Of a stretch of DNA of 64,000 nt, positions 10,916 to 55,957 are shown piece by piece (the first letter of the stretch is position 1; each line of letters opens with the position of its first letter). The DNA comes from Pseudotevenvirus miller (taxonomy: Duplodnaviria > Heunggongvirae > Uroviricota > Caudoviricetes > Straboviridae): IMG/VR virus record IMGVR_UViG_2706796139_000001, positions 50,895 through 114,894 of that record; one strand, given 5' to 3'. Below the pieces are notes generated by a model, which had not been told where the DNA came from, did not search any database, and saw only the letters and a program-made list of their open reading frames with translations. The translations under genes were made by a program, and so were the position numbers.

Positions 10916-11491
10916 ATGAAAAGAAAGAACACACTTGATAAATTTATGGTTACTCGTTTAAACATCAAGAACAGCAAGAACAAAGTTGTTACCTTGCCTA
11001 CTGGTGAAGAAGTCACGATCCCGCGTCTGGGTTATCGTCATTTCACCCAGATTAAAGCAATGAAAGACCCTATGCAATTACTTGATTATATCATCAACGA
11101 GATCAAACCGCGTGATTTGACAGCAGCAGAAACCGAATTTCTTCTGATTCATTTGCACTATCATAACGATGATAAAGCGATGGAAGCATTGAAAGAGATC
11201 GGGATTAACCTGGATGATATGAAAATCAGTGAGGCTAAGTATGAATACACTTTTGATAACATCAAATTGGTATTCAATAAACCGACCCTGATGCTGGATG
11301 AACTTTCATTACTGATTAAAGAAGCATACGACAACGGGAAACCGATCGAGCTTACGGACGAAAACCGGATTCAATTAATTAACAGCCTGTATCGTTATGA
11401 ATATGACGAGGTAAAACGTGGCGTACTCCAGGAAGTATATATTGTGCATGAGGGGAAAACCATCAAAGGGCTTAACATCATCGGTGAATGA
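10916..11491 (+). CDS. 28: baseplate hub distal subunit gp28-like
   Basis: 191 aa (T4 gp28 is 177 aa). Assigned from position between gp27-like and gp29-like genes. Confidence 0.4.
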   Translation: MKRKNTLDKFMVTRLNIKNSKNKVVTLPTGEEVTIPRLGYRHFTQIKAMKDPMQLLDYIINEIKPRDLTAAETEFLLIHLHYHNDDKAMEALKEIGINLDDMKISEAKYEYTFDNIKLVFNKPTLMLDELSLLIKEAYDNGKPIELTDENRIQLINSLYRYEYDEVKRGVLQEVYIVHEGKTIKGLNIIGE

Positions 11492-13221
11492 TAATGGCTA
11501 AAAATCCATATTACAGCGACGAACAACGTCGCAGGATGCAAAATCCACAACAGCCACAACCCACCGTTCGTAAGATTAACGCAACGTTGGATAAGGCTTC
11601 AATGAATGAATTGAAGGACATCAACAATAACACTCTTGAAACCGCGTTGAATACGCTGGATATCAAGGATGGTATGAAGTCCTTCGAAGACCGCTTTAAA
11701 GATAAATTTGCTGGGTTTAAAGAGCAATTCGAACAGGATCAGGAACCGCTTGCAGAACAGCTACCTGATTTTGTTGACCCCGCTCGACCATCATTAACCG
11801 ATAACAGCACAACCAGTGTTGATAACTCCGTTAGTGTATCAAACAACCCGTTTAGCAAGCTGGAAGAACATACAGGCACTATTGCAGAAGCAATAACCTC
11901 GTTCATTGCGCTGGCAAGCAAAAAGCCGGAACCCGCGCCAGAACCGGAACCCGTACCGGAAGAAGAACCAGAAGTTGATAAGAAGAAAAAGAAAATTCGG
12001 GATAAAGACAAAGACGAGAAGAAATTCAGTAAACGTGTGTTAGCATTGCTTGATTCAATCAAAAACAATACATCAGGTATACTGTCTCGCTTTATTGGTT
12101 ATTCTCTGGAAGCACTCGCCAAATTTGCTAAGTGGACATTGATTATCGGTAGTATCGTATTTGCGATCGACGTTCTGGCTAAGGTTGTTCAGAAATGGTT
12201 CCAGGACATTCTAAGCGAGGGTGAAGCCTCGAAAGAGTTGTTCGGTTCTTACTTCAAAAACATCAAAGCGCTGGCAGAGAAAATAAACGAAGGTTTGGAA
12301 AACTTCGATATGAGTAATCTGGGCGAATCGCTGAAAAATCTTTTCATGGAACCGTTTAAAGTTCTGGGTGATACGATTAAAACTGCTATCACTGAGGGTA
12401 TCGGTAATTTAATCTATGCTCTGGGTGAATATACTGGTTCAGAAACGATTACTGATGCAGGTCGCGGAATGAAAGTATCTGCGTTGCGCGACAAACAGAA
12501 ATACGGTTTGGAGATTGATCAGGATGACCTGATTATGCTCAAAGAGCAAGAAATCCAGGATCAGAAAGATAAAATCGTCGAAGCCCGTTCTAAATTGGTG
12601 GATCAGGTTAAAGCAACACAGGGCGCGTTCTCCTATGGATTCGGGCAGCAGACAGACGCACAAAAGGCGTTATCTAAACAACTCGAAGAAATGCGTAATC
12701 AAGTTGATCTCGAAGAACAGATTACGAAAGAAAAGGAAAAAGAACTACAGGCGTTGAAAGACAATCCTAATCTGCTTAAAGAACAGGTACAGAAGGAGAA
12801 CACCGAAAACCGCAAACGTGTTGATGATACCAAACAGATTGAAGCAGCACAAAAGCAAGCCAAACCAAAAGCAGAAAGTGAATTCGATCGTGGTGATGAA
12901 ATCCTGAATAAAGATGATATCACCGGAAAAGACAAAGAGTTGATGGAAAAGATTCTGGAATCTCTGGAAGAGAAGAACAATTCACAGAAACTCGATGAAG
13001 ATGATAAGGATCGTTATCGCTCGATGCTCGACCAGTGGCAAAACAAAATTGCGGTAGTTCCAGAAAGCAGCGCACCGATTGATAAACAACCCGAACCTGT
13101 AAGAGCACCAGTTGATGCGGTTGCTTCTAACAACGTCCAGGTAAACCAAAAAACAGTTAACAACATGGTACAACATTCAGTACAAAGAACTGAACGTAAG
13201 CCGTTGATTGCATTAGCATAA
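11488..13221 (+). CDS. 29: tail tube tape-measure / hub protein gp29-like
   Basis: 577 aa (T4 gp29 is 590 aa). Coiled-coil-rich with one TM-like helix (WTLIIGSIVFAIDVLAKVV) and a PEP/K-rich low-complexity stretch. Position is upstream of the gp48-like and gp54-like genes. Confidence 0.55.
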   Translation: MIMAKNPYYSDEQRRRMQNPQQPQPTVRKINATLDKASMNELKDINNNTLETALNTLDIKDGMKSFEDRFKDKFAGFKEQFEQDQEPLAEQLPDFVDPARPSLTDNSTTSVDNSVSVSNNPFSKLEEHTGTIAEAITSFIALASKKPEPAPEPEPVPEEEPEVDKKKKKIRDKDKDEKKFSKRVLALLDSIKNNTSGILSRFIGYSLEALAKFAKWTLIIGSIVFAIDVLAKVVQKWFQDILSEGEASKELFGSYFKNIKALAEKINEGLENFDMSNLGESLKNLFMEPFKVLGDTIKTAITEGIGNLIYALGEYTGSETITDAGRGMKVSALRDKQKYGLEIDQDDLIMLKEQEIQDQKDKIVEARSKLVDQVKATQGAFSYGFGQQTDAQKALSKQLEEMRNQVDLEEQITKEKEKELQALKDNPNLLKEQVQKENTENRKRVDDTKQIEAAQKQAKPKAESEFDRGDEILNKDDITGKDKELMEKILESLEEKNNSQKLDEDDKDRYRSMLDQWQNKIAVVPESSAPIDKQPEPVRAPVDAVASNNVQVNQKTVNNMVQHSVQRTERKPLIALA

Positions 13222-17421: not shown

Positions 17422-17655
17422 TTAGCCCCTTTTAAGATTAACCAGCCATGAAGTTTGTGTTTCTAAGCCAACAGCTTTCCAATCATAGGCAACACTATAC
17501 CCTGAATAGGTTTGACACACAACAGCATTTTCGTTCAGAAACTTAACTTTGTGTTTCGCTTCCTCTTCGTTCAAAGCAGCGCACACGAAGTTCTTTTCAT
17601 ACACACCGCCATTAGGCTGGATAATGGTTTCTTCAATCAGATATACACAGTTCAT
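17422..17655 (-). CDS. hypothetical protein (77 aa)
   Basis: Tightly packed ORF. Confidence 0.45.
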   Translation of the reverse strand: MNCVYLIEETIIQPNGGVYEKNFVCAALNEEEAKHKVKFLNENAVVCQTYSGYSVAYDWKAVGLETQTSWLVNLKRG

Positions 17656-20344: not shown

Positions 20345-22564
20345 TTACAGTTTAACTTCTTTTTCTTCCAGGACGATTTCGCAATCGAATGTTGCACCTT
20401 CCCAGAACTTATGCGGGATAATGTCAGTCGCTTTAACCGATACTTTGGTTTCTTCGAAATCCATATCCGCAAACCATGCGTGGCCTACAACGATACCGTA
20501 CATTACACGGCTCAGGCGCTTGTTCAGTGCGCGTACTTCGTTGATGGTTGCCTTTGTTTCTTTATCAAGGTACTCGATTACCTTATCCTTGTCAAGCGCT
20601 GCGAGTTCAGCTTTAACAGCATCGTAAGCCCACAGGATGATCAGGTCGCCGTTGTTCAGTTTCTTCTTACCTTCGGCACGTTTCGCAACGGTTGCCGCTA
20701 CAGCAGGAAGGGAGGAAACACCCTTGATTTTCAGATTCAGTTCTTTCGACATATAAACATCAGTCGAATCGGTACGGGTTACTTTCGGGGAGAATCCATA
20801 ATCACGAATACCCTGTTCAGATAACCATTCACCAGCGGCTTCACCGTATTTCTGTTTCAGACCTTCGGCATTACGTAAACCGATCGCATCGTCACGGAAG
20901 AACTTCATCACCTTCTGGCGACCTTTCAGGATTTCCAGACGGATAGAGTCGTTTACATACTCTTTACCGGAGATCCCGCGAGTCATCGCACGGTTAACCA
21001 GAGGCAGACTTGTAAAGTCAACCAGAACCGACATACGGTCTTCACCGATTTTTGCCAGCGGCTTGATGGTCAAACCAGAAGCGCGGAGGTTTTTCAGTGT
21101 CGGAATATCAGTTTCCAGAGGCAGAACCTTAACGTTTACGATACCGTCTTTAACGATGGTAAAGTTACGCACCTGCTTAGTTTCGATCTGTTCAGGCAGT
21201 CCGAATTCTTTCTGCTTACTTTCTGGGATAGTTACGTAACCAGCCAGATCCGTGTTAATGGAAATGTTCGGACGTGAACTGTTACCGACCAGATGCTTAA
21301 CCGATACTTTGGTTGTAGTCTGGGTAAATTTCGGTGTCCAGATTTCGTGCGTTACCATTTGCGCGGCTAATGCTTTGCGTTCTTCCGGTGTTTTCGCATT
21401 TGCGATCTGTTCTGACAGTTGATCCAGAGTATCATCTTCTTTCTGTACTGTCTGACGGCCTGTACGGTTGTACGCCCAGTGTTCAGAAGACAGGTCGATC
21501 ACTGTGTCAGTTTCTGCCAACAGTTCGAGAGCATCAACCAGAGTGAATGCGTTTTCGTCTGGAACCATGTTGTAATCAACACCCTCAATCAGACGTTTAC
21601 CCGCATCAACTACCGCTTCCGCGATCAGGTCTTTGGCGTTGGAATAATCCTGCTTAGTAAAGCAGTTATCGTATGCCTTAATCAGACGAACGTCACCGAC
21701 TTTTTTCAGCACTTTCCATGCCAGATCAGGGTTCATGGTGTGCAGTGCATGATACAGCACCACGTACAGAACCTGTTCACCTTCCATCGTAGCCGGATCG
21801 AATCCGTCGATGTCGTTGATTGCGTTTTCACCCAGCGCCCAGATGTTTTTGATATGCTCAGGAACCAGCACAACACCGTTTGCAGCGTTAAGGACATACA
21901 CGCGCCCTTCGTCAATGTAGATCGCATGGGTAGCATCACCTACTTTAACTTCAACACGCGCTGATGTTTGAGCGGTAATGATTTCAGCAAATGCTGGCTC
22001 GTATGCGTCGAAACCTTCAACGAATTTATGCAATGCGTTGGTTGCTTCTGCCATTTTTTCCAGCAGAGGACGGTTAACATAGTAACCATATTCCAGGAAC
22101 GCAATGCTGTTAAACGTCAGCGGGAGAACCGCACACGCTTTCAGGATGTCATCGGTACGCCAGCAGTTATCATAACCATCCGTCAGGAAGATCAGGCTGT
22201 TCAGGTTTCCGTTTTCGGATTGCAGGTCAGTTGCAATCTCAGCAGCCAGATTCAGAGGTTCGACGAAACCAGTACAACCAGTAGGTTTCAGATAACGGTC
22301 GATCGCGGTGCAGATATTGGTCAGATCCGATACGTTGCTAACCTTCTCACCACGGAACACAGTACCGTAATCGCCTTTGCTGGAGAAGTACAGGATCGAA
22401 ACAGTATCATCCTGTTTAACCAGGCTTGCCAGATTCGCTTTCAGGTGCTTACGAATTTTCGGCAATTCACTGTACATTGAACCGGAAACGTCGCAAACGA
22501 AAACGTGGTTGGTCGGAGTCGGTTTAGATACTGCATTTTTGAATTCGATATTTGTAATTGACAT
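20345..22564 (-). CDS. von Willebrand factor A (vWA) domain protein, 739 aa
   Basis: N-terminal MIDAS motif VFVCDVSGSMYS ... LFLTDGYDN. The long C-terminal region has no recognisable domain. Not Alt-like or RIIA-like. Confidence 0.8.
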   Translation of the reverse strand: MSITNIEFKNAVSKPTPTNHVFVCDVSGSMYSELPKIRKHLKANLASLVKQDDTVSILYFSSKGDYGTVFRGEKVSNVSDLTNICTAIDRYLKPTGCTGFVEPLNLAAEIATDLQSENGNLNSLIFLTDGYDNCWRTDDILKACAVLPLTFNSIAFLEYGYYVNRPLLEKMAEATNALHKFVEGFDAYEPAFAEIITAQTSARVEVKVGDATHAIYIDEGRVYVLNAANGVVLVPEHIKNIWALGENAINDIDGFDPATMEGEQVLYVVLYHALHTMNPDLAWKVLKKVGDVRLIKAYDNCFTKQDYSNAKDLIAEAVVDAGKRLIEGVDYNMVPDENAFTLVDALELLAETDTVIDLSSEHWAYNRTGRQTVQKEDDTLDQLSEQIANAKTPEERKALAAQMVTHEIWTPKFTQTTTKVSVKHLVGNSSRPNISINTDLAGYVTIPESKQKEFGLPEQIETKQVRNFTIVKDGIVNVKVLPLETDIPTLKNLRASGLTIKPLAKIGEDRMSVLVDFTSLPLVNRAMTRGISGKEYVNDSIRLEILKGRQKVMKFFRDDAIGLRNAEGLKQKYGEAAGEWLSEQGIRDYGFSPKVTRTDSTDVYMSKELNLKIKGVSSLPAVAATVAKRAEGKKKLNNGDLIILWAYDAVKAELAALDKDKVIEYLDKETKATINEVRALNKRLSRVMYGIVVGHAWFADMDFEETKVSVKATDIIPHKFWEGATFDCEIVLEEKEVKL

Positions 22565-24741: not shown

Positions 24742-24996
24742 TTAAAAAAGATGCGTTAAATGCCCTGCATTGCTGGGATATTCTACGTAATCACCACGGA
24801 AGATGTTCAAATCTTTGTCAAATTTAAACCCTTGACCTTGAACATCTTCATGGCGCGACACATAAGAAACTCCATATTTTTCAAGGTCTTCCATATACAT
24901 TTCAGTGATTCTCTTCGCCTTATCCATCCCGCGCCCCTCGAATCGAGAACGTCGATAATGTGTAAGAAGAAACGCGTATAATTTTTCGTATGTCAT
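24742..24996 (-). CDS. hypothetical protein (84 aa)
   Basis: ORF. Confidence 0.4.
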   Translation of the reverse strand: MTYEKLYAFLLTHYRRSRFEGRGMDKAKRITEMYMEDLEKYGVSYVSRHEDVQGQGFKFDKDLNIFRGDYVEYPSNAGHLTHLF

Positions 24997-25904
24997 TTCA
25001 ACACCTTTCTGATTTGTTTTGCTATCGCTTCGATCACCGGAACCGATACAGAGTTACCAGCTTGTTTGTATGCCTGTTTCTTGCTTGTGGGGATCTGGAA
25101 TGTATCGGGGAATCCCTGCAAGCGAAAACATTCACGCGGGGTTAATCGTCGTGGGTTCTTCCCGTCCTGCAACACCAGACACTGAACACCATCCTTATAA
25201 TATTGCGCTGTGATGGTTCCTGTGTGCGTAGAATCGCTTGTGACGGCCTGATAACCAAACCCCTTACCATTCGCCTTGTTTCGTTCCTTACGCTCTCTAA
25301 AGCCTTTCCATGCGTTATCTGATAGGGTGTATGAATCATCAGCATCTTCGAGGATGTCGCCCACTCTCGTAGGGGTACGCGGGGGAACCGGAAACGAAAA
25401 GAATACATCTTCCAGGAAACAAACAATAAACACACGTTCACGTCGCTGGGGCAATCCGAAATCTTTTGTATTCAGTCGTTGATAGAATACGTTGTATCCT
25501 TCGGCCTCCAGAAGCCCGTAAATCGTTTTAAACGTCTTTCCCTTGTCATGGGTTAGTAGTTCAGGCACGTTCTCAAAGAACAGCACACGGGGCTTTTTAG
25601 CGCGTATGATGCGGAGTATTTCGAAGAACACCGTACCGCGAACATCATCGAACCCCAGTTTTAATCCTGCTTTACTGAATGCCTGACACGGGAACCCAGC
25701 CAACAGGATATCGTGATCAGGTACTTTGTTTTCGTCGATAGCGAACAAGTCACCTTCGAGATTATCACCGCCCCAGTTAGCGGCATATGTTTGTTGCGCG
25801 TATTTGTCAATCTCAGCAGTCAACGCACATTCAATACCATTGAACGCACGATCGAAGCCCAGACGAACACCGCCCACGCCAGCGCATAAATCAATTACTT
25901 TCAT
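24993..25904 (-). CDS. DNA (cytosine-5)-methyltransferase (Dcm-like)
   Basis: All canonical C5-MTase motifs present: I DLCAGVGG, IV GFPCQAFS, VI ENV, VIII QRRERVFIV, X GNSVSVPV. 303 aa. Confidence 0.9.
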   Translation of the reverse strand: MKVIDLCAGVGGVRLGFDRAFNGIECALTAEIDKYAQQTYAANWGGDNLEGDLFAIDENKVPDHDILLAGFPCQAFSKAGLKLGFDDVRGTVFFEILRIIRAKKPRVLFFENVPELLTHDKGKTFKTIYGLLEAEGYNVFYQRLNTKDFGLPQRRERVFIVCFLEDVFFSFPVPPRTPTRVGDILEDADDSYTLSDNAWKGFRERKERNKANGKGFGYQAVTSDSTHTGTITAQYYKDGVQCLVLQDGKNPRRLTPRECFRLQGFPDTFQIPTSKKQAYKQAGNSVSVPVIEAIAKQIRKVLK

Positions 25905-25931: not shown

Positions 25932-26633
25932 ATGCTAATATCAGCAGACAGTGTAGACGAACTCAATCAGAAGGTCAACCAACTATTAGATCAAGGTATG
26001 TATCTATGGGGTAGCCCTTTTGTTGTACCCAACAGCTATCACAACCAGACACGATTCTTCCAGCAGGTTTCAAACGTGAATCCATCAGGAGGCGGCGTTG
26101 ATGGTAAAAGCGCGTATCAGCTTTGGCTTGAACAACCAGGGAATGCAGGGAAACCAATAACAGATTTCTTTGCAGCGACTGCTGGCGTTCGTAAAAAATC
26201 AGAGGTGTTCTGGACGGGGTTAACTTTGGTCGTTCCAGAAGATACACCAACAAACTTAATCAACCTGCTTAAAACGATCGTACCAACAACGGGAACTCTT
26301 GAACCATTCTTTAAGATCACCGATAACAAATTGCATCCATTCAATGAAGATGCAACAGTTCAATTCAAGTTGAACCTGAAAGGTACTTTCACTGGTGCGG
26401 CAACAGCCCCACGAAGCGTAACACTGGATTTTGTCGGTACACAGGGAAATACCCTTGTATTGAACAGAAGCCAATCAGTAACAACCAGCACCCTTTCATT
26501 CGTCACTTTCTTTAGTGTCGATAAAAACGGTAATATGGCAACCAACGGAACCGCGATCAATATCTTCGCAAGCGGTAGTCCGTTCACATTGTCAGAAGTT
26601 TTACTGGTTGCAGAACAGCGCACCACTCAATAA
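25932..26633 (+). CDS. putative fiber-like or surface protein, 233 aa, Thr/Gly-rich
   Basis: The only + strand gene in the minus-strand region. Contains GKSAYQLWLEQPGNAG, a motif common in phage tail-fiber proteins. Preceded by cATAAATAta (late-promoter-like). Divergent from the MTase gene. Confidence 0.5.
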   Translation: MLISADSVDELNQKVNQLLDQGMYLWGSPFVVPNSYHNQTRFFQQVSNVNPSGGGVDGKSAYQLWLEQPGNAGKPITDFFAATAGVRKKSEVFWTGLTLVVPEDTPTNLINLLKTIVPTTGTLEPFFKITDNKLHPFNEDATVQFKLNLKGTFTGAATAPRSVTLDFVGTQGNTLVLNRSQSVTTSTLSFVTFFSVDKNGNMATNGTAINIFASGSPFTLSEVLLVAEQRTTQ

Positions 26634-33730: not shown

Positions 33731-34315
33731 TTAACAGTCTACGCCAACTTTATCAAGCACTTTTTCATGATAATGCTTACGACACAGCGAAACGTATTTG
33801 TCTTCGGCTCCGATTTCGACTTGCTCCCCTTCGGTTACGAAATTGCCTTGTGCGTCGATACGTGCGACCGTAGTTGCTTTACGCCCACAATGACACATTC
33901 CCCGAAGTTCTCGGATCTCGTCAGCCCAGGCAAGCAACCAGTAAGAACCCTCGAACAGATTCAACTGAAAGTCTGTGCGCAACCCGTAGCACATAACAGG
34001 AATTTCGAGTTCATCGACAACACGACAGAGGTCGAAAACGTTTCTCTTTGAAAGAAACTGTGCTTCATCAACAAAGATGCACGAAATGTTATTCCGGCGC
34101 TGGATATCCCAAAACAGATCCATATTAGGTGCAATCAATTCGCATGTTGCGCTTAACCCGACACGAGAAGCAACAGTGTGTGATGTGCGAGTATCAAGCA
34201 TAGGCTTGTAGATCACAACGTTCATACCGCGTTCTTTGTAGTTGTATGCGTCTGTAAGTAGTCGCGCACTTTTACCAGCGTTCATTGATGCGTAGTGATA
34301 ATACAGTTTAGCCAT
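33731..34315 (-). CDS. tk: thymidine kinase
   Basis: MAKLYYHYASMNAGKS Walker A. The C-terminal zinc ribbon CHCGRKATTVARID...VSLCRKHY is close to E. coli Tdk. Confidence 0.9.
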   Translation of the reverse strand: MAKLYYHYASMNAGKSARLLTDAYNYKERGMNVVIYKPMLDTRTSHTVASRVGLSATCELIAPNMDLFWDIQRRNNISCIFVDEAQFLSKRNVFDLCRVVDELEIPVMCYGLRTDFQLNLFEGSYWLLAWADEIRELRGMCHCGRKATTVARIDAQGNFVTEGEQVEIGAEDKYVSLCRKHYHEKVLDKVGVDC

Positions 34316-37553: not shown

Positions 37554-38897
37554 TTAAAAGTTGTCTTCGACGAATGCAGCCAGGCGTCCACGATACACAG
37601 TATTCAGGATTATGTGACTAGCATGGTCATATTCTTTAAGTTTTTCAACAGCATACACAAAGCCGTTGTTAACCGCAGTGTTTCGCGGGTTGTCAATCTG
37701 CTTAATGTTCCCGCATAGTATCAGAAGTGTGTTCTCACCGCAACGGGAAATAATGGATTTTATTTCATGGTTGCTCAAGTTTTGACATTCGTCAACAATC
37801 AGCACGGAACCTTTGCCTGGATCTGGATGTCCGATTGAACGCCCACGGAAGTAATACAGGCTAGGGAACTGCACCACACCTTTTTCCAGAAGTCCTTCAA
37901 CGTACTTGTCAACTTCCGGTTGATCCTTAAACAGAATGTTCAGGCTCGTGATACAAGGCTCAACAGACGGTCGGAGTTTTTCGCCCAGAGTGCCAGGCAA
38001 GAAACCGATTTCACCAGACAGCGGACTATCAGCCTTGACATACATCAGGTTTGCGAAGTGTCCCGCGTTTACCATGTGCATCGCACCAGCAACCGCCAGC
38101 ATTGTTTTACCGGAACCAGCCGCACCCATGATGGTCACAACGTCATTGTTTTTGTCCAGAATAGCATCAACGAATGACGCTTGCAGAGCATCGCGAGGCT
38201 GAATTGTTTTCATCAGCTTACGCTTTAATGCTTGCTCGTGCTTAATAGGCAATACTTCAAGCTGAAACTCTCCAGCAGCAACCACACGCCCCACAATCTC
38301 ACCATGTGACAGAATGTATTGGTTTGGGTAGAAATCTGCGTCAGGAAGCGATGAATACGTTATAATGGCATATGGCCCGACATACTCCAGAACTTCGACG
38401 GTTTCCCAGAACAAAGGCAGTTCGATATAGCCAGAATACAACACATCACTATCTTTCAGCGAGTCATCGCCAGTGTATTGCAGAACCGGACAGCCTTTAG
38501 ACATCGCAATCAACAGCATGTTAATATCGCGAGTCACCAGCGTTGCGCCCTGTTGAATACAAGTTGCAATGATCCGAGCATCTTGTTTATCAAGCGGGAA
38601 TTCTTCTTCACCGACATAATCGACGATTTTAAGCGTTACGCTTTCCGGTACTGCTGGGTTTGACAGGTTTAACGAAACCCCTGTTTGGGTAATTGCTTCA
38701 TAATTTTGTCCCAGGATTGCTTTGGACAATAACCGGATCGCCAGTCTTGCTTCATGAGCGGTTCGCTCTTTGCTTTTCAGGTGATCCAGTTCTTCCATCG
38801 TCGCAGCAGCGATAATGATTTCACTACCCGATTCGATGTAAGAATAGATTGAATATGGGTTCGAGATTAAAACGTTGGTATCTAGAACATATTTCAT
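37554..38897 (-). CDS. phoH: PIN-domain / PhoH-like ATPase fusion (PhoH2/YlaK-like)
   Basis: N-terminal PIN (MKYVLDTNVLISNP...), then Walker A IMGAAGSGKT and Walker B LIVDECQN. About 448 aa from the MKYV start. Confidence 0.8.
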   Translation of the reverse strand: MKYVLDTNVLISNPYSIYSYIESGSEIIIAAATMEELDHLKSKERTAHEARLAIRLLSKAILGQNYEAITQTGVSLNLSNPAVPESVTLKIVDYVGEEEFPLDKQDARIIATCIQQGATLVTRDINMLLIAMSKGCPVLQYTGDDSLKDSDVLYSGYIELPLFWETVEVLEYVGPYAIITYSSLPDADFYPNQYILSHGEIVGRVVAAGEFQLEVLPIKHEQALKRKLMKTIQPRDALQASFVDAILDKNNDVVTIMGAAGSGKTMLAVAGAMHMVNAGHFANLMYVKADSPLSGEIGFLPGTLGEKLRPSVEPCITSLNILFKDQPEVDKYVEGLLEKGVVQFPSLYYFRGRSIGHPDPGKGSVLIVDECQNLSNHEIKSIISRCGENTLLILCGNIKQIDNPRNTAVNNGFVYAVEKLKEYDHASHIILNTVYRGRLAAFVEDNF

Positions 38898-38951
38898 AGA
38901 AGTTTTCCTGTTAATTGCGGGGTACGCGGATTCGCACCCCGCGCACTGCAA

Positions 38952-42405: not shown

Positions 42406-42698
42406 AAGTGACTAATCTCAGCAGATTTCATTTTCATCTGGATAGCCTGAACAGCAAGGTCGCGCTGTTCTTCGGTTTCGTATCCAGCCCACGTTACAGA
42501 ATCTTTATGAACGAAGTGAAACACAATAGCAGGTTTCCACACGTTACCAGGACACGGAACAGTAGCATCAGTTTGTATCCAAGAAACGTGGTCTGTGTTT
42601 ACCGGATAATTGGTACATTCAACACTACCACTATCAACAAACATTGTATGCGGTGCGTACAAACGTGTATATTTTTTGATTCTGGATATAATCAACAT
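42402..42698 (-). CDS. hypothetical protein (98 aa)
   Basis: ORF immediately downstream of the radical SAM gene. Confidence 0.4.
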   Translation of the reverse strand: MLIISRIKKYTRLYAPHTMFVDSGSVECTNYPVNTDHVSWIQTDATVPCPGNVWKPAIVFHFVHKDSVTWAGYETEEQRDLAVQAIQMKMKSAEISHL

Positions 42699-43852
42699 TA
42701 TTTCAACTCCACCGCGTATACATCAGTTTCGGGGGCTTTGTGTACGCGCATATCTTTACCGCATACTGCATAAGCCGGACAGTTACGACAACCGTTATGA
42801 TCCTTATTACCGATCAGTTCATTACGGAACTGTTTGGTTTTCGGATGTTCCCAGATATCCTTAATGAAATCGTTCGCTTCCAGGACATTCAAACCTTCTT
42901 CCCAACCACCTTCAACCCAGCGTTCGGTAAACGAACAAGGGAAGAACTCGCCTTTCTCGTTGATGTACGAGCTAAACATGGTTGCTTCACAATCTTCGGC
43001 ATACTGTTTGTACTGTTCGAAGTTTGGGTGTCCTTCCATCGCTTCAACGAAAGCGGGGGCTGAACAGCTATCGAAACCAAATCCTACACCAGAATCAAGG
43101 CAGTATTCAACAAGTTTTTTGTATTGTTCGCGGGTAACAGTATCCCAGTTCTTACCGCGTCCCTTTTGTTTCAGCCCCAGGAACACAATCGCATTGACTT
43201 GTTTCAGGCGCGGATCATTCTTCACAGCGTCAACCACGTTAAACGCGTCATCATAGGTTTTAGAGCTAACCATGAAATGAAGGTTGATCTGCTGTTGTCC
43301 TGCTTCTGACAGGTTCGCTACCGAGTCGAAAGCGACATCGAAGCCAGCATGTTTATAAACCGATACCGCAACAGCCCCAGCAACCGCAGCCAAACGCGCT
43401 GCAACGTCTTTTGATACATCGGCAATGGTAAGGTTCGGCACAATGCCTTTAGAACGCGCATAGGCCATCATATCGAACATATCAGGGTTTGTTTGTCCCT
43501 GTGCATCAGCACCGAGGGCGCATTGAGTCAACCAGGGCATTTTATCAATGATAGATTTGAACGATTTCAGATCCATATTGTAGCCGTTAGGGTTGTTAGA
43601 CTTGTAACAGAAACCGCATAGCTTACCAGCGGGGCCATTACATTTCGTGGTGATCTCAATATCGAGAATTTCAGGGAAAGGCGCGTATGTCGGATCGCTT
43701 GCAAAGGTTGTACCCCAACGAGCGAATTCGCCAGTGTCAACATTGAAATTGTAGTTGTACCACTTAGAGCGAGCAAAGCGCATATTACCCTGCTGGTAAA
43801 TCATCAGCGAAGGGGCTTTCATTACAGTTTGTGCGCGGTCAATAATATCCAT
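42698..43852 (-). CDS. radical SAM-like enzyme with C-terminal Cys-rich (SPASM/twitch-like) domain
   Basis: DIEITTKCNGPAGKLCGFCY resembles the radical SAM core (T..CN..C.YC) but with Cx7Cx2C spacing. The C-terminal half has 7 Cys, including GCRNCPAYAVCG. Start uncertain (MDIIDRAQ or upstream). Confidence 0.55.
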   Translation of the reverse strand: MDIIDRAQTVMKAPSLMIYQQGNMRFARSKWYNYNFNVDTGEFARWGTTFASDPTYAPFPEILDIEITTKCNGPAGKLCGFCYKSNNPNGYNMDLKSFKSIIDKMPWLTQCALGADAQGQTNPDMFDMMAYARSKGIVPNLTIADVSKDVAARLAAVAGAVAVSVYKHAGFDVAFDSVANLSEAGQQQINLHFMVSSKTYDDAFNVVDAVKNDPRLKQVNAIVFLGLKQKGRGKNWDTVTREQYKKLVEYCLDSGVGFGFDSCSAPAFVEAMEGHPNFEQYKQYAEDCEATMFSSYINEKGEFFPCSFTERWVEGGWEEGLNVLEANDFIKDIWEHPKTKQFRNELIGNKDHNGCRNCPAYAVCGKDMRVHKAPETDVYAVELK

Positions 43853-43862
43853 GATATAGTTC

Positions 43863-44069
43863 TCAAAATTTAACGTGGGATTGGAAAACAGCACGAGCAA
43901 GGTTTTCGCTATCGAACGGGATTGATGTTCCATGGTCTTTGCTGTCAATGTTAACGCGCCAGAACTCACTAGACCCGTTTTTGGTGGAGTAATGCATCAG
44001 CGTTACCGTCTTATTCTTTTCCAGGAAGGTGCGTTTATCAATCTCTGTTTTTATTTCGTGCTGCATCAT
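43863..44069 (-). CDS. hypothetical protein (68 aa)
   Basis: ORF upstream of the radical SAM gene. Confidence 0.35.
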   Translation of the reverse strand: MMQHEIKTEIDKRTFLEKNKTVTLMHYSTKNGSSEFWRVNIDSKDHGTSIPFDSENLARAVFQSHVKF

Positions 44070-46899: not shown

Positions 46900-47859
46900 T
46901 TATTTTGGTAATTTTTTGATTAATGCTTGTAAGTCGTTGATTTTAGAAAACAGTTCATCGCTATATCGCATCAATTCCTGTCTGCGTTTTGCAGCCCATG
47001 AAACCAATGTTTTTGCATCATCAACACCATAAGTGTATCCATCAGCGGATAGACGAATGATCGCACGAGAACCGTAGTCAACATTTGCATGTTCGATTAA
47101 AAACTTCACCGCTTCGAGAAGTTCGGAATCTTCCTTACTGACTAGAACACCGTTATCATCAGGAAATTCGTTTTCATCATGAACACTCGCAAAATCAAGG
47201 TCGATATAATCATCCTGATTCACCTGGCGGCGCGTGTTGTCTTCGAGACTTTCAATCTGTGAAACCATAGTTTCTACCGGATCTCTTTCAATTGGTTCTC
47301 TGTCGGTTCCTACTTCTTCCAGGAACATCAACAACCAACCAGGGATCAACGAATCAAAAGAACGCTGAATAGGGCTTGCATGGTCACTACCCAGTATTTT
47401 CAACGCACAACCGTCTTTAGTAGCGGTGTGGATATAAATGACGTTACGGTCACGCATACGGCGGCTACCATGAGAAAGGAAGCGACGTAACGAGGTGTTA
47501 TGTCCATAGCGACTCAGATCCAGATTACACAGAGAATCGATAGCCCCACGGTTAGCAATCCGGTAGCGCTTGAATGTTTCAAATCGCAGATTTTCGGTAG
47601 TTACTGGCTTAAATTCTTCGTAAAGAATATAATATTCTTTCGGAATCTCGCGATGGAGAACTCGCAATTCACCATTTTCCGAAGGAGTGAGCACAGAACG
47701 AACATTACCGTTCGCATCACAATGTACCTGCATGACTTGAGGATAATAGAACCCATTAGCCTTTATGGTGTAGTCGGGTACGCGACTCAGGCGCTTTCTG
47801 TAGTACCATTTACCAGTAACAAACGGGGTTGCAGATCCTGCTAAACTAATTGGTTTCAT
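46900..47859 (-). CDS. hypothetical protein (319 aa) downstream of the DUF262 gene
   Basis: ORF overlapping the DUF262 gene by 4 nt (operon). No confident domain. Contains HCDANGN. Confidence 0.5.
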   Translation of the reverse strand: MKPISLAGSATPFVTGKWYYRKRLSRVPDYTIKANGFYYPQVMQVHCDANGNVRSVLTPSENGELRVLHREIPKEYYILYEEFKPVTTENLRFETFKRYRIANRGAIDSLCNLDLSRYGHNTSLRRFLSHGSRRMRDRNVIYIHTATKDGCALKILGSDHASPIQRSFDSLIPGWLLMFLEEVGTDREPIERDPVETMVSQIESLEDNTRRQVNQDDYIDLDFASVHDENEFPDDNGVLVSKEDSELLEAVKFLIEHANVDYGSRAIIRLSADGYTYGVDDAKTLVSWAAKRRQELMRYSDELFSKINDLQALIKKLPK

Positions 47860-48386
47860 TTTGTGGCCTTATACATTTCAATTACGCGTTTCATGTGCTC
47901 TTGTGATTGAGGCACACCAGCGAAGTTCAATTTAATGAAGAATTCAAGACGATCCTTTTTATTACATTCATCCAGCCCCAGGGCAGGTAATGACAGGTTT
48001 TCAAAGGCTCGTTGTTCATGTCGTTGCATATCATCCCAGAACAGACGGGAACCATCCGGCATAGGAATCCCAATCTCACCCTCATAGACTTTGATGATAG
48101 TCGTCAGGCGTTGTTTCCCGTCGATTACTTCTACCCAATGGGATTCGTTGAATTCACTATCAACAGCAATCGCGATAATACCACACGGGAAACCAGTGAT
48201 CAACGTAGTCAGGAATTCATCTTGTTCTTTCTGCGTCCACACATAGGGGCGCTGATAGGATGGATTCAGATCCAGATCTTTGTTTTTCCACCAGTGGATA
48301 TAACTTCCAACCATGATCGCATGTTCGCGACTTCTGAAAGTTATCCGTTCACGAATCCGGTTACGGACTACGATTTCATCAGCCAT
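47856..48386 (-). CDS. DUF262 (ParB/Srx-like, GmrS N-domain-like) protein
   Basis: YQRPYVW and DGKQRLTT (the DGQQR motif). 176 aa. Confidence 0.7.
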   Translation of the reverse strand: MADEIVVRNRIRERITFRSREHAIMVGSYIHWWKNKDLDLNPSYQRPYVWTQKEQDEFLTTLITGFPCGIIAIAVDSEFNESHWVEVIDGKQRLTTIIKVYEGEIGIPMPDGSRLFWDDMQRHEQRAFENLSLPALGLDECNKKDRLEFFIKLNFAGVPQSQEHMKRVIEMYKATK

Positions 48387-49996: not shown

Positions 49997-50256
49997 AATT
50001 CACCTATTTCTTTCAGTTCAGTTTTGAGTTTATCGAGGGTCGATTGGTATTGTATCATATTTGTTCCGTCAGCGAAACGGTAATAATACAGTGTACGGGT
50101 TTCGTTGATGTCTGCCAGCACTTGCTGATCAAGCGTTGCAGGGTCAATCCCGAACGCCATTTTGAACATCATTTCGGCGCTGTCGGCAAAACCGTGCGCG
50201 TAGAAAGCGAAACCCAGCTTAGGATCGAACTGCAACAAGGATACTTTAGCCATAAT
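49993..50256 (-). CDS. hypothetical protein (about 87 aa)
   Basis: Starts MAKVSLLQFDPK. Confidence 0.4.
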   Translation of the reverse strand: MMAKVSLLQFDPKLGFAFYAHGFADSAEMMFKMAFGIDPATLDQQVLADINETRTLYYYRFADGTNMIQYQSTLDKLKTELKEIGEL

Positions 50257-50539
50257 ATTCTTCGTAGTCCTCGCAGTCTGGGAGATACGTTTCACAGAAC
50301 ATGCACAGCGTGAAGAAAGTAGGCTGGCGAATCCCTGGGTTATCCGGTAGATACATCCAGAACGTGTTAGCAAACACGATGAAGGTTTTCAGGTTTTCGA
50401 CAGTGATTTCGCTGATACCGTCATAACCGGATTGAGCAATTGCACGTTCCAGGGGAACAGGGTATTGCTCGCAATATTCGGCGTAATGTTCACTCAATAA
50501 CATTGAGTTAGCCGCTTTTACAAGATCGATGATTTTCAT
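50246..50539 (-). CDS. hypothetical protein (97 aa)
   Basis: ORF. Confidence 0.4.
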   Translation of the reverse strand: MKIIDLVKAANSMLLSEHYAEYCEQYPVPLERAIAQSGYDGISEITVENLKTFIVFANTFWMYLPDNPGIRQPTFFTLCMFCETYLPDCEDYEEYYG

Positions 50540-51006
50540 GCTTTGACATATTCCACTTTAACAGGTTTGGCGATAAGGTGATCTTTGGTGTAACCTTGTC
50601 CGTCGCAAACATCACAAACGATTTTGAAATCTTCCATTTGGTCGACCCATCCAGAATCAGGCAATCCAGAAGGGTACGTGTTGAAGGTTTTAACACTGTA
50701 TCCTTTTCCATCACACTTAGGGCATTTATACGGGTATTTCGATTTGATCGCACTATACAATTGACCCAGTGTGGTCGAATGATCAAAGTGTATAACAAGT
50801 GCTTCAACGTCAGCAATGCGCAATTCGTTTGGCTTGATCACAGTAAACACATTTGAAGGTATGTTTGGACGCATAATATATTTCTCACTTAAAGAATTTT
50901 TTGATGAAAGAGAGGAACAATCCACCGCCGAACATGATCCAGTATCCCGCGCCGTCACCGTGAAACAGGACGTAAACCGCGACACCATAACAAAAGATTT
51001 CTGCAA
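50536..51006 (-). CDS. protein with two DnaJ-type CxxCxGxG zinc-finger motifs
   Basis: CPKCDGKGY and CDVCDGQGY. Start uncertain. Confidence 0.4.
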   Translation of the reverse strand: MQKSFVMVSRFTSCFTVTARDTGSCSAVDCSSLSSKNSLSEKYIMRPNIPSNVFTVIKPNELRIADVEALVIHFDHSTTLGQLYSAIKSKYPYKCPKCDGKGYSVKTFNTYPSGLPDSGWVDQMEDFKIVCDVCDGQGYTKDHLIAKPVKVEYVKA

Positions 51007-52805: not shown

Positions 52806-53468
52806 TTAAAAGTTAAATACATTCAGCACGTCAGCTTTCAATTCACTAAGCGTACCATTATTTAGGATGATAATATCATTGGGTTGAGGTTTCAAGCCTT
52901 TCTCAGTTGAATGGCTATCATCTTCACCAGTTTCACGTTCGATGAATACAAATTTAGCTCCGAACTTGCTCAGATATTTATATTCATGTTTTTGTCGAAC
53001 ATCCGTAATGATAAAGTTATCTTTGTCGGATTTCAACATTTTCTTCAATACAATATCAGTCCATACAGAATCGTTATTATTACACACGATATCCGTACCG
53101 AAAACCTGCATCAGACGGCGTATTGTCCAGGGCTGTTTGTTGTTTCTGCAAATCTCAAAAGCAGCAATATCAGCATTTCTGAGAGAATAACCTTGTTTGG
53201 TCAACGCTTTAACACCAAAGCTAAACAATACTCGCGCATCCTCGTTAGACATCAACAAGGGGGCTTCACGATCGCCTGAATAGAATGGGTTTGTTTTAGA
53301 AAGTTCACACAGATAGCGATTGTCTACTGATGACTCCATTCCGTTTCTCAGGATACGTTTAATTTCATCAGCAAGCGCCAGCGTTTCAACGTTCTCGTAG
53401 TTCATCGTAACGAATTGCGCAACAGTATCTTTGCCCGTTCGTTTTTTACCACAAATGCAATAAATCAT
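52806..53468 (-). CDS. 1: deoxynucleoside monophosphate kinase (T4 gp1)
   Basis: P-loop CGKKRTGKDT. WTIRRLMQVFGTDIVCNNND, TDVRQKHE and HSTEKGL match the T4 gp1 blocks. Confidence 0.9.
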   Translation of the reverse strand: MIYCICGKKRTGKDTVAQFVTMNYENVETLALADEIKRILRNGMESSVDNRYLCELSKTNPFYSGDREAPLLMSNEDARVLFSFGVKALTKQGYSLRNADIAAFEICRNNKQPWTIRRLMQVFGTDIVCNNNDSVWTDIVLKKMLKSDKDNFIITDVRQKHEYKYLSKFGAKFVFIERETGEDDSHSTEKGLKPQPNDIIILNNGTLSELKADVLNVFNF

Positions 53469-54004
53469 GATTCTTTTTTCCGTGGAGTCGGCACGATCAC
53501 CCGTCCATCAATTTCAATCTCCATGTGAGTGAAGTTGAACATAGCCATACAGGAAACGGCTTCATCCGAATCGTTTGTATACATAAGCTCAAGCTCTCCG
53601 AGGTTGGAGGGCCAAGCACCATAAAAGCGAAACGTCGCTACAGTTTTTGATTGCGAGTTATCGAGGATATGCAAAGCCATAGCTTGCTGTGATTCACTCC
53701 ATCGAACTGATTCAAAGGTGTTGTAATCAACAGTCCCAAGCATCCACAGGTAAACACCAAGATAAGATCGCAATTCTTCATCAACAGCAAATCGAATGGT
53801 TAACGGATCGAACTCCATTGCTGAACCAGGGATCTTACTTCGGATCATTGGGTTCAGAGGTACATCCGTAATCGGTATGTTGATAGAAGGTAGTGTAACA
53901 CCCTGAACTTGTAGTTTCAACCCTTTCATGTAGTCATTATCAGGAATATCCAATAGAAAGTTGGTTGGTGAAATTTGGTTCAGGATCATAGCAGTAGTGT
54001 TCAT
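53465..54004 (-). CDS. hypothetical structural protein, gp3 (tail completion)-like by size and position
   Basis: 179 aa (T4 gp3 is 176 aa), adjacent to gene 1. Late-promoter-like ATAAATA lies upstream. No motif confirmation. Confidence 0.3.
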   Translation of the reverse strand: MNTTAMILNQISPTNFLLDIPDNDYMKGLKLQVQGVTLPSINIPITDVPLNPMIRSKIPGSAMEFDPLTIRFAVDEELRSYLGVYLWMLGTVDYNTFESVRWSESQQAMALHILDNSQSKTVATFRFYGAWPSNLGELELMYTNDSDEAVSCMAMFNFTHMEIEIDGRVIVPTPRKKES

Positions 54005-54276
54005 TTATGATCTCCATTTTATAGATATTTATGTAGACCGTGAGCGAAGCGAACACACGAACGAAGTGAGTGTTTTTGACTCAACTACATAATTATATAT
54101 TTATATTTTATATATAGAGAAAAATGTAGTTTTTGGTATGGTTTTTAACCAGATGTAAACTATCCGTCTTCGCTTCGCTTGACGGAACTCGCTTCGCTCG
54201 TAACCTTGAATAATTTACTTGATCCTTTCAATAAATAGGTATATCATACCCATACTTTCAAAAGAGATTGAAAACA
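54005..54276. repeat. AT-rich divergent-promoter region with nested inverted repeats
   Basis: The outer repeat gagcgaagcgaa ... ttcgcttcgctc and the inner repeat aactacat ... atgtagtt flank the core aattatatatttatattttatatatagagaaaa. ATAAATA late-promoter-like boxes face both ways. Confidence 0.5.
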
Positions 54277-55067
54277 TGAAATCATTCAAAGAACTACTTT
54301 CTGAATCCACTCAGAACAAAAAATTTGCAAAGACCGTTGAACTGGTTGACCGTAATGGTGTTGCTCCATCAAAAGGCCAGATAGGTTTCCTTCATTTTGC
54401 ACACGGTGCTGATTACGATGTGTATGCGCCGGATTCTCATGACCTGGCTTACTTCGGTAAAGGCGTTGTTCGTCTGAAAGGGAAAACCACTGGTAAAACT
54501 CAGGCTGCATACGTTGACTGGGCTAAGGGTACGGTTTCCTTCTACAGCGGTGATCCTGCTGATGACCTGAAATTCGACAAACCGTTAAAATTCAAAGGTG
54601 CTTCCCTGTACAAAGAAGCCGAAGAAAATCTGGATCTGTACAATCAGTTAGCGGAAGATTTCGAAATCGAACTTCCGTTAGATGAATCACTGGTTAAGGG
54701 TGCTATTTACAAATTGCCAAGCAATGATATGCGCCTGATGTACACTGGGCGTTCAAAGACAAAAGCAACTGGTGAATACGCTGTCTTTACCGTTGTAGAT
54801 GCTTCTGGTAAGCCTCGTCTGGTTTCTGGTAAACGTTTTACCCAAGAATATAAAGGCGATATTCTGTCTAAGCTGGTTCTCGCTGAATCGGAAGACCTGA
54901 ATGAAGCGGCTAAAGACATTCGCGAAAAAGTTATTGCGGTGTTGGTGAAACGCGGGTTTAACGAAAAAGATGCAGAAAAGATGGTTGACAAAAACCTGAA
55001 AGATGCGATGAAAGTTAGACCTGGTGCGACCCCTGGCAAACTTGCAGAAATCGTGAGTACCCTGTAA
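54277..55067 (+). CDS. internal head protein (IP) with a T4-type capsid targeting sequence
   Basis: N-terminal MKSFKELLSE|STQ matches the T4 IP CTS MKTYQEFIAE, cleaved after LxE by the prohead protease. Lys-rich, 263 aa. Lies in the ipI-like neighbourhood (near genes 1, 2 and 3). AATAAATA lies upstream. Confidence 0.55.
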
Positions 55068-55071
55068 AAAT

Positions 55072-55104
55072 AAAGCCCCTTCCTTTCGGTTGGGGCTTTT
55101 TGTT
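55072..55104. terminator. bidirectional rho-independent terminator
   Basis: aaagccccttcctttcggttggggctttttgtt, the same hairpin as at 16911..16934. Confidence 0.6.
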
Positions 55105-55957
55105 AATATCTGTTCCAGACTTTTTTCGCAGAGAAAGGTTTCCCTTTCGATACAAACGCCTGTGTAGGCAACCAGACAGCTTTCGCCCAATCTTTCGGGG
55201 CAATTTCTGCAAGTGGTGATCGCAAATGGGCTGGTAGGTAGGCTTTGATCATTTGATCCGCACCTCGCATCCCTTTTACGTTGTTCCAGTTGATTTTCAA
55301 TCTGGTTTTGTTTGAAAGTCGATCCGTTGATCCGTAACCACGTTTCAAAAGTTCTTCTAAAAACTCCTGTCGTGCTTTCGGTGGCGCATAGTGCAAGTTC
55401 AGCCCATACAGAACCACGTTACCCGCTTTAGAACGTCCTGAACCCAGGAAGATGATTAGCGGGAACCGATCCCAGTATGGTAAGGTGTCTTTGTACTTCG
55501 CATCATACACGAACGTATACAGACGACCTGTTGCTGGTTTTGCTACTCTGTGCGTTTTAATACTGGTTTTGATGAAATCACCAAACCATTCAGTAGATTC
55601 TTTCTGACGTTTCGCAGCGGGAACACCAACTGTAATTTTCCGTAAACTATTTCGGAAATCGTTGATTATATCAACCGTGTGTTTTTTGCGATAGTCATTA
55701 CGCTTTCGTCGGGCTTCGGTTTCTGCTGTACGTCTTGCGATCTCGTCGTCGATCTGTTGCTTGTAACGGTGCATAGACTTCGTGAACGTCGCGTATGCAA
55801 TTCCGTTTTCGTCTGCGAATTTTTTGGCAGTCATGCCTTTTAATTTTGCGCGTCGGAATTTAATACCAAGTTCTACCCATTCACCCAACTTTCGCTTCGG
55901 TGGCGGTTTTGGCTTGTCTTCTTCTGCGATGATCTCGAACTCAAATATAAAACTCAT
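55103..55957 (-). CDS. 2: gp2-like DNA end-protector protein
   Basis: 284 aa basic protein (T4 gp2 is 274 aa), downstream of the gp4-like gene on the minus strand, as in T4. Confidence 0.45.
   Translation of the reverse strand: MSFIFEFEIIAEEDKPKPPPKRKLGEWVELGIKFRRAKLKGMTAKKFADENGIAYATFTKSMHRYKQQIDDEIARRTAETEARRKRNDYRKKHTVDIINDFRNSLRKITVGVPAAKRQKESTEWFGDFIKTSIKTHRVAKPATGRLYTFVYDAKYKDTLPYWDRFPLIIFLGSGRSKAGNVVLYGLNLHYAPPKARQEFLEELLKRGYGSTDRLSNKTRLKINWNNVKGMRGADQMIKAYLPAHLRSPLAEIAPKDWAKAVWLPTQAFVSKGKPFSAKKVWNRY

Follow-up and report, generated by a model that had tools for sequence, protein, structure and literature searches.

Citrobacter phage vB_CfrM_CfP1 and its relatives carry, inverted between genes 3 and 2, a conserved gene headed by a T4-type head-loading tag, and the gene therefore most likely encodes a new, modular injected protein. 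The product is probably a head-internal (“IP-type”) protein of a Pseudotevenvirus that would be packaged, processed and injected; the sequence features, their conservation, the layout of promoter and terminator, the protease gene and the motif statistics were observed directly, whereas we infer packaging, the cleavage positions, injection and any host target from the sequence. The best-supported description is that of an unannotated addition to the T4-type tag-bearing internal proteins, unusual in its three-module architecture with protease motifs at the junctions.

The window, a 64,000-nucleotide stretch of Pseudotevenvirus DNA, begins at CfP1 position 50895, as fixed by a 14.9-kb overlap with zero mismatches. 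Across its positions 54100-55100, the window matches Citrobacter phages IME-CF2 and vB_CfrM_CfP1 at 100% identity and phage Miller at 99.8%, a group placed in the Straboviridae, genus Pseudotevenvirus, RB16/RB43 group. Sequence reading and the ORF list agree on an ORF at 54276-55067 (+) that encodes 263 aa plus a stop codon (55065-55067), with the N-terminus MKSFKELLSESTQNKK. A preliminary description of this DNA had placed the start at 54277, which is one base off: the ATG lies at 54276, and the frame read from 54277 has 14 stops. An upstream TTG at 54219 was ruled out as the true start because it lies upstream of the late promoter-like box described below and because no homologue reaches that far. 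The ribosome-binding site (GAG in aaaagagatt, 54264-54266, +) was read from the sequence and is annotated as such in the Miller orthologue. The protein is Lys-rich, as had been described, with Lys making up 12.5% of residues and a pI of 8.4. The gene corresponds to CfP1 ABCD_0190 and Miller CPTMiller_00194, annotated in both as “hypothetical protein”. Its orientation, earlier said to oppose that of its neighbors, does so: gene 3 (53465-54004) and gene 2 (55103-55957) are both on the minus strand, and past gene 2 follow gene 4 (−), gene 53 (+) and gene 5 (+). The T4 spacer between genes 3 and 2 is 106 bp long and empty (NC_000866).

The first ten residues, MKSFKELLSE↓S (here and below, ↓ marks the known or predicted cleavage position), had been likened to a T4 internal protein consensus. 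T4 IPII and IPIII, read from NC_000866, begin MKTYQEFIAE↓ARVG and MKTYQEFIAE↓ASVV, so the consensus had been quoted correctly and the likeness holds. T4 IPI begins MKTFKEFTST...ITE↓A (NC_000866); residues 1-7 of the protein are even closer to IPI, and its positions 8-10 form L/I-x-E as in IPII and IPIII. Mutants of T4 IPIII assign targeting mainly to residues 4 and 7 and processing to residues 8 and 10 (reviewed in PMC9026906). The protein keeps these determinants, F4 and L7 for targeting and L8 and E10 for processing, in the context L8-S9-E10↓S11. Comparison with the T4 internal proteins, conservation and a chance test all define a capsid targeting sequence (CTS)-like propeptide at 54276-54305 (+), with a predicted cut after E10. 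The pattern MKx[FY]KE[FL][LIMV]xE would be expected by chance 1.9e-5 times in the genome's 2111 six-frame ORFs that start with Met and are 40 aa or longer; for a looser regular expression 0.04 matches are expected and one was observed, this ORF. It is the sole tag-pattern match in the 180 kb of CfP1, in a scan that covered the genome except about 0.9 kb (50001-50894).

The tag is conserved among relatives. In 15 homologues with 46-96% identity it stands at every start, with F4, K5 and E10 invariant, and residues 11-30 vary. An exhaustive profile search added five more relatives, four of them tagged (MKNFKEFMTE, MKNFKEYLNE twice, and MKQFKQFLSE); position 7 among the homologues is L, F, Y or M. 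The exception, which counts against an internal protein, is the most divergent homologue, P0020 of Morganella phage vB_Mm5, which starts MGFKSFIEK and has its first canonical LDE↓S only at residue 27. The CTS that the preliminary description expected in homologues was thus found, as LxE↓S/G/V at the tag in 16/16, with a poorer version only in P0020. For the Slopekvirus-type orthologues P0002 and P0011, the start given in the database, MTHLKKFKEFLTE, probably adds three codons too many; read from the Leu codon, the protein would begin with the canonical tag MKKFKEFLTE↓G.

Phage records with a member of the family number about 180. Most are from Pseudotevenvirus or Slopekvirus; Yersinia, Pantoea, Buttiauxella and Morganella are represented by one phage each and Aeromonas by two records, and nearly all entries describe the product as “hypothetical”, as a “Phage protein” or as having no known function. 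Only 13 relatives came out of a profile search through 1.8 billion representatives; they either belong to this narrow clade or match the C-terminal module (Module C, below) alone. The order gp3 (−), gene (+), gp2 (−) is kept wherever context is available, even in the distant Morganella phage vB_Mm5. Neither T4 nor Morganella phage MP1 (where gp140 is gp3 and gp141 is gp2) has the gene. A literature search found no virion proteomics of Pseudotevenvirus, Slopekvirus or CfP1; MP1 provided the sole related virion proteome found, which is uninformative on this protein because MP1 does not have the gene.

The machinery that would act on such a tag is present. CfP1 encodes a Peptidase_S77 prohead protease (1.4e-76), a T4_CASP scaffold protein, gp22 (1.3e-86), and a GP67 protein (1e-11), and the gp23 propeptide site FLAE↓A is conserved. 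T4 gp21 cleaves after Glu in L/I-x-E (PMC9026906). The protein contains seven [LI]xE motifs, compared with 2.3 ± 1.3 in composition-preserving shuffles (P about 0.002). When 240 ORFs of the genome were ranked by z-score for this enrichment, gp22 came first, gp21 second, the protein fifth, gp68 ninth and gp23 fourteenth, with the protein also ahead of gp67; since gp22, gp21, gp68 and gp23 rank high, the statistic recovers known protease substrates. The third and fourth ranks fell to two other ORFs of the window, for both of which a CTS-like start is absent. One is a 577-aa protein without a Pfam match (11488-13221, +; CfP1 62382-64115), which lies between a gp28-like and a gp48-like ORF and so may be gp29-like, and the other is a 77-aa ORF (17422-17655, −; CfP1 68316-68549).

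Four of the motifs are conserved across the family: 8-10 in 16/16 homologues, 135-137 in 15/15 if M or V is allowed, 202-204 in 14/14, and 208-210 in 11/13 ([LI]xE↓A/S). Their P1' residue is S, A, G, V or C. These conserved motifs lie in or adjoin the low-confidence AlphaFold segments 8-14, 128-137 and 205-213, with pLDDT below 50 at residues 8-14 and 205-213. More broadly, [LIMV]xE is nearly absent inside the modules described below and clusters at their borders. Against the internal protein reading, L/I-x-E is a short motif and two of the seven copies fall within predicted helices, so that not every L/I-x-E need be cut.

Enrichment of this kind could also mark a prohead-core accessory protein like gp67 or gp68, targeted by its tag, serving head assembly or size control and degraded by gp21, with no injected effector. 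The core proteins gp22, gp21 and gp68 show the highest enrichment, the protein has seven motifs, and its gene sits among the head-completion genes 2 and 4. The T4 core proteins are cleaved into several fragments (PMC9026906). We nonetheless consider this explanation unlikely. The motifs concentrate at the junctions and spare the folded modules, so that cutting would leave domains of 6-14 kDa whose retention would be expected as for the internal proteins. The C-terminal modules are swapped between close relatives and T4 and MP1 lack the gene, so that accessory cargo fits better than an assembly component. There is also no homology to gp67 or gp68, the Pfam GP67 profile matching another gene (CfP1 134041-134292) and the protein having no Pfam match.

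An AlphaFold model combined with the alignment defined three modules in the presumed head-internal protein. Module A (aa 11-137, 54306-54686, +) is a conserved beta-sandwich with a C-terminal helix (domain model pLDDT 79.6, pTM 0.71), and it ends in a linker that carries LAE↓D and LDE↓S. Module B (aa 138-204, 54687-54887, +) is a small SH3/Tudor-like beta-barrel that ends in LAE↓S. The junction SEDLNE↓ (54888-54905, +), delimited by low pLDDT, conservation and module insertions, supplies a second L-x-E motif before Module C (aa 211-263, 54906-55064, +), a three-helix bundle resembling RuvA domain III. In relatives, Module B is missing (P0017-P0019), Module C is replaced by either of two unrelated modules, and an extra module of ~80 aa is inserted exactly between the LVE↓A and L/I-x-E↓A of the 204/210 junction (P0009 and P0010); module swaps and insertions thus coincide with the linkers that bear conserved motifs. 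A comparison with the diversity of IP loci, suggested in the preliminary description, bears out the resemblance, with three alternative C-terminal modules, an inserted module, loss of Module B, and the tag kept in nearly all members. A tentative extension, possible but on the whole doubtful, is that one tag delivers a cargo polyprotein, the prohead protease cutting the L/I-x-E junctions to yield three independent injected proteins, and that relatives swap modules at these points.

Searches with the whole protein against Pfam, NCBIfam and PDB sequences gave nothing above noise, a PHROGs match led to a family named as unknown, and a search for a catalytic signature or an ART domain found none. 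Individual resemblances of the mature domains (PH-like, SH3/Tudor-like and RuvA-III-like) serve as leads only; what can most safely be said is that the cargo resembles a set of binding modules, which may individually mimic host interaction domains. The Module B barrel is similar to the Tudor domains through which CarD and Mfd interact with RNAP. Module C resembles RuvA domain III, the RuvB-binding three-helix bundle, with scores below any family threshold, and RuvA domains I and II are absent from the protein; that Module C binds RuvB is pure conjecture. A free-standing paralogue of Module C lies outside the window in CfP1: ABCD_0016 (12753-12962, −), a protein of 69 aa with 53% identity to Module C over 51 aa (match 12759-12911), encoded among replication-type genes and without a tag. 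Other phages also have Module C as a protein by itself (phrog_9411, P0024, P0026), and P0025, a protein of 236 aa, has it at the N-terminus.

Tag-headed genes were sought more widely by scanning IMG/VR with the pattern ATG AAR NNN TWY AAR GAR YTN NTN NNN GAR, which was found at no fewer than 120 loci. As many as 114 of the 124 matches listed lie within 30 codons of an upstream stop and so represent ORF starts. Among the listed matches, residue 3, which the pattern leaves unconstrained, is T or S in 73%, the residue after Glu10 (P1') is S or A in 58%, and a late-box-like motif lies within 70 nt upstream in half. The tagged cargo falls into at least 65 clusters without mutual similarity, none resembling the protein described here, and at 98 of the 120 listed loci there are homologues of T4-like genes of CfP1, gp17, gp15, gp18 and gp23 among them. 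These results are in line with the literature, in which this leader has long served to identify ip genes in T-even phages (Repoila 1994, cited in PMC12373910; PMC3012670).

These counts bear on another explanation, namely that the protein is made late and acts in the cytoplasm, perhaps assisting gp2, gp3 or gp4 in assembly or at DNA ends, that its likeness to a CTS has no targeting role and that it is not packaged. Domains that look like binding modules would suit such a factor, as would a Module C that also exists free-standing and untagged, on the minus strand, in a region of replication-type genes. Yet the tag has the very small chance expectation per genome given above, it is conserved while the next 20 residues drift, and it heads at least 65 unrelated families on T4-like contigs, nearly always at an ORF start, which is hard to explain without a common N-terminal function. 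We hold this explanation to be about as improbable as that of a core protein.

The scan also brought to light tagged cargo of other kinds. About 23 of the 124 listed tagged ORFs form one family of ~165 aa that starts MKTFKEFLDE↓SSLSRIKSKSDKGG, with loci at L030:7503-7997 (+), L026, L040, L050, L073, L109 and others. The L030 representative matched the Pfam profile S-AdoMet_lyase (PF23780) at 6.6e-18 (65 bits, cut-off 28). Judged by sequence, this would be a capsid-targeted, injected SAM lyase on T4-like phage contigs, plausibly an anti-restriction enzyme delivered with the DNA; a literature search for SAM lyase together with CTS found no paper with both terms among those listed. Several contigs bear two nearby tagged ORFs (L047, at 6037 and 6848; L054; L079; and L082, from a 247-kb contig), much as ip genes stand in tandem in the hotspots of T-even phages. 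Further tagged cargo includes a DUF192 protein (L037), a DUF5661 protein (L126), a 966-aa low-complexity protein (L027) and weakly cytidylyltransferase-like proteins (L095, L042, L124).

The late-promoter-like sequence previously reported ahead of the gene is a box, AATAAATA, at 54230-54237 (+), 38 nt before the ATG and of the same variant as the gp23 box. CfP1 late genes carry NATAAATA or CTAAATA boxes: TATAAATA lies upstream of gp20, gp22, gp34 and gp37, CTAAATA upstream of gp53, gp7 and gp15, and the variant cAATAAATA is common to gp23, gp2 and this gene. Orthologous loci have in the same place TATAAATA (L005, L006), CTAAATA (L007) or TATAAATATAAATA (Morganella vB_Mm5). ATAAATA heptamers number 37 on both strands of the genome, against roughly 60 expected (derived from 8-mer expectations), and many lie 24-50 nt upstream of late genes. 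The box is a consensus match as opposed to a mapped transcription start, a point that weighs against the internal protein reading. Beyond the stop codon, a bidirectional intrinsic terminator (55072-55099; stem aaagcccc...ggggcttt plus a T run), common to the convergent gene 2, is annotated on both strands in Miller and CfP1. A sigma-70 and terminator scan of the locus did no better than on shuffled sequence and missed this annotated terminator. From its late box and terminator the gene is predicted to be a self-contained late cassette, inserted inverted and transcribed late from its own promoter.

The spacer upstream of the gene holds a repeated intergenic element (54040-54205) bounded by inverted GAGCGAAGCGAA / TTCGCTTCGCTC, and the box of the divergent gene 3 (54026-54032, −) lies just beyond its left end. 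The element is ~165 nt long, with perfect inverted repeats and an AT-rich core that has an internal ACTACAT...ATGTAGT repeat. It occurs in three copies of 97-98% identity and one orientation, between gp3 and the gene, between gp24 and uvsY, and between rnh and gp55, the two copies other than that beside the gene lying at CfP1 139241-139388 and 34171-34314. T4 oriF lies at uvsY. TCGCTTCGCTC has four matches compared with 0.89 expected, and the motif CTCGCTTCGCTCG is kept ~30 nt upstream of the late box in L005-L007. Rfam searches of the locus and the element returned sub-threshold noise only. PeSL cassettes have been described in RB49/phi1 (PMC2839356); measured against them, an inverted-repeat element was found at three intergenic sites, and no significant sigma-70 promoter at the copy beside the gene. 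By its sequence, the element may represent a regulatory cassette of the PeSL type, a small mobile element or an origin-type sequence. That the gene is instead an early or middle accessory gene riding on a mobile promoter/stem-loop cassette (a PeSL-like moron) and expressed from sigma-70 promoters is very unlikely. In its favor, the element is repeated in two further intergenic spacers, the late box is overlapped by a weak TTGATC-17-TATCAT match, and the copy upstream of uvsY carries TTGACT-16-TATAAT. Against it, the sigma-70 scan gave 2 sites against 2.3 in shuffled sequence, the late box is conserved in orthologues without the repeated core, and early plus late expression would be compatible with packaging anyway.

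As a candidate internal protein, the product shares with T4 IPI-III and the ip genes of T-even phages the decapeptide tag, the L/I-x-E cleavage motif, the same protease and scaffold machinery, and an accessory nature with content that varies among relatives. In contrast, the T4 internal proteins are single domains of 95-193 aa, whereas this protein, much larger as had been claimed, has 263 aa in three modules. It is also less basic (pI 8.4) than the classic internal proteins. Its gene exists in one copy, inverted between genes 3 and 2 and thus outside the two T4 loci, the ipI and ipII-III hotspots. Apart from the tag, no similarity was found: comparison of the mature protein with T4 IPIII by hhalign gave a probability of 0.8%, and protein and tblastn searches returned no T4 matches. 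Size, basicity, location and the dissimilar mature part all count against the assignment. T4 Alt offers a parallel: this larger protein is packaged in the head, is injected, and is cut by gp21 at several positions, ITE-6 and LTE-619 (PMC5694885). Alt, however, is an ADP-ribosyltransferase, and the putative internal cuts in the present protein would separate modules rather than trim ends. Head and ejection proteins of the giant phages phiKZ, 201phi2-1 and SPN3US likewise have Glu-ending protease motifs repeated per precursor, but these phages belong to another family, their motif is S/A-x-E, and their sites were mapped experimentally, whereas the sites considered here are predicted.

T4 Ip1, Ip2 and Ip3 each specifically inhibit a different GmrSD enzyme of host type IV restriction (PMC12373910), and an IPI*-like anti-GmrSD role for the present protein can be offered only as an analogy. 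The restriction enzymes countered by Ip1-3 act on glucosyl-hmC and, unlike T4, the phage of the present protein does not have the hmC-glucose DNA pathway: no homologues of the T4 alpha- and beta-glucosyltransferases were found in CfP1, and T4 gp42 matched only thymidylate synthase, at 24.5% identity. RB43 has been described as having canonical DNA bases (PMC8056088). The window encodes a Dcm-type C5-cytosine methylase (24993-25904, −; PF00145, 4.7e-94) and a Dam methylase is annotated in CfP1, and methyl-dependent type IV restriction enzymes are therefore conceivable targets of the protein. The preliminary description also drew attention to a DUF262 (GmrS-like) gene in the same genome. Such a gene exists (DUF262/GmrSD_N, 47856-48386, −; E 3e-20), and it was rejected as a clue to the protein's target because a phage-encoded enzyme says nothing about host defences. 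Its product has 176 aa, with the match covering only profile positions 12-77, and the ORF overlaps by 4 nt a 319-aa ORF (46900-47859, −) without a Pfam or NCBIfam match; the two may form a split type IV-like nuclease, which this phage, its own cytosine being unmodified, possibly directs against rival hmC phages. The window contains other unusual accessory genes, which encode an Sf6-type tail-needle-knob domain protein (25932-26633, +; 7e-35), a 739-aa von Willebrand A protein (20345-22564, −), a PIN-PhoH fusion (37554-38951, −) and a SPASM-domain (radical SAM-type) protein (42698-43969, −).

We propose a model in which the gene would be transcribed late from its own NATAAATA promoter and MKSFKELLSE would act as a T4-type CTS, docking the protein on the gp22 scaffolding core during prohead building. 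The gp21-type prohead protease would then cleave after Glu10 and probably also at the linker L/I-x-E motifs, after E137 and after E204 or E210. The products would be a beta-sandwich of 14 kDa, which is acidic, and a barrel of 7 kDa and a three-helix bundle of 6 kDa, which are both basic. They would stay in the head alongside the DNA, pass into the host cell together with it when the virion next infects, and there most likely bind host factors.

Internal proteins that are injected act ahead of all phage gene expression, and many of the phages that carry this protein family infect clinically relevant Klebsiella, Enterobacter, Citrobacter and Cronobacter. The protein is accordingly a candidate host-range or anti-defence determinant in phages without hmC DNA. 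It also points to a CTS system that is not confined to the T-evens and takes modular, possibly polyprotein cargo, and it shows that the tag alone can be used to mine metagenomes for injected effectors across T4-like phages, as exemplified by the tagged SAM lyase family.
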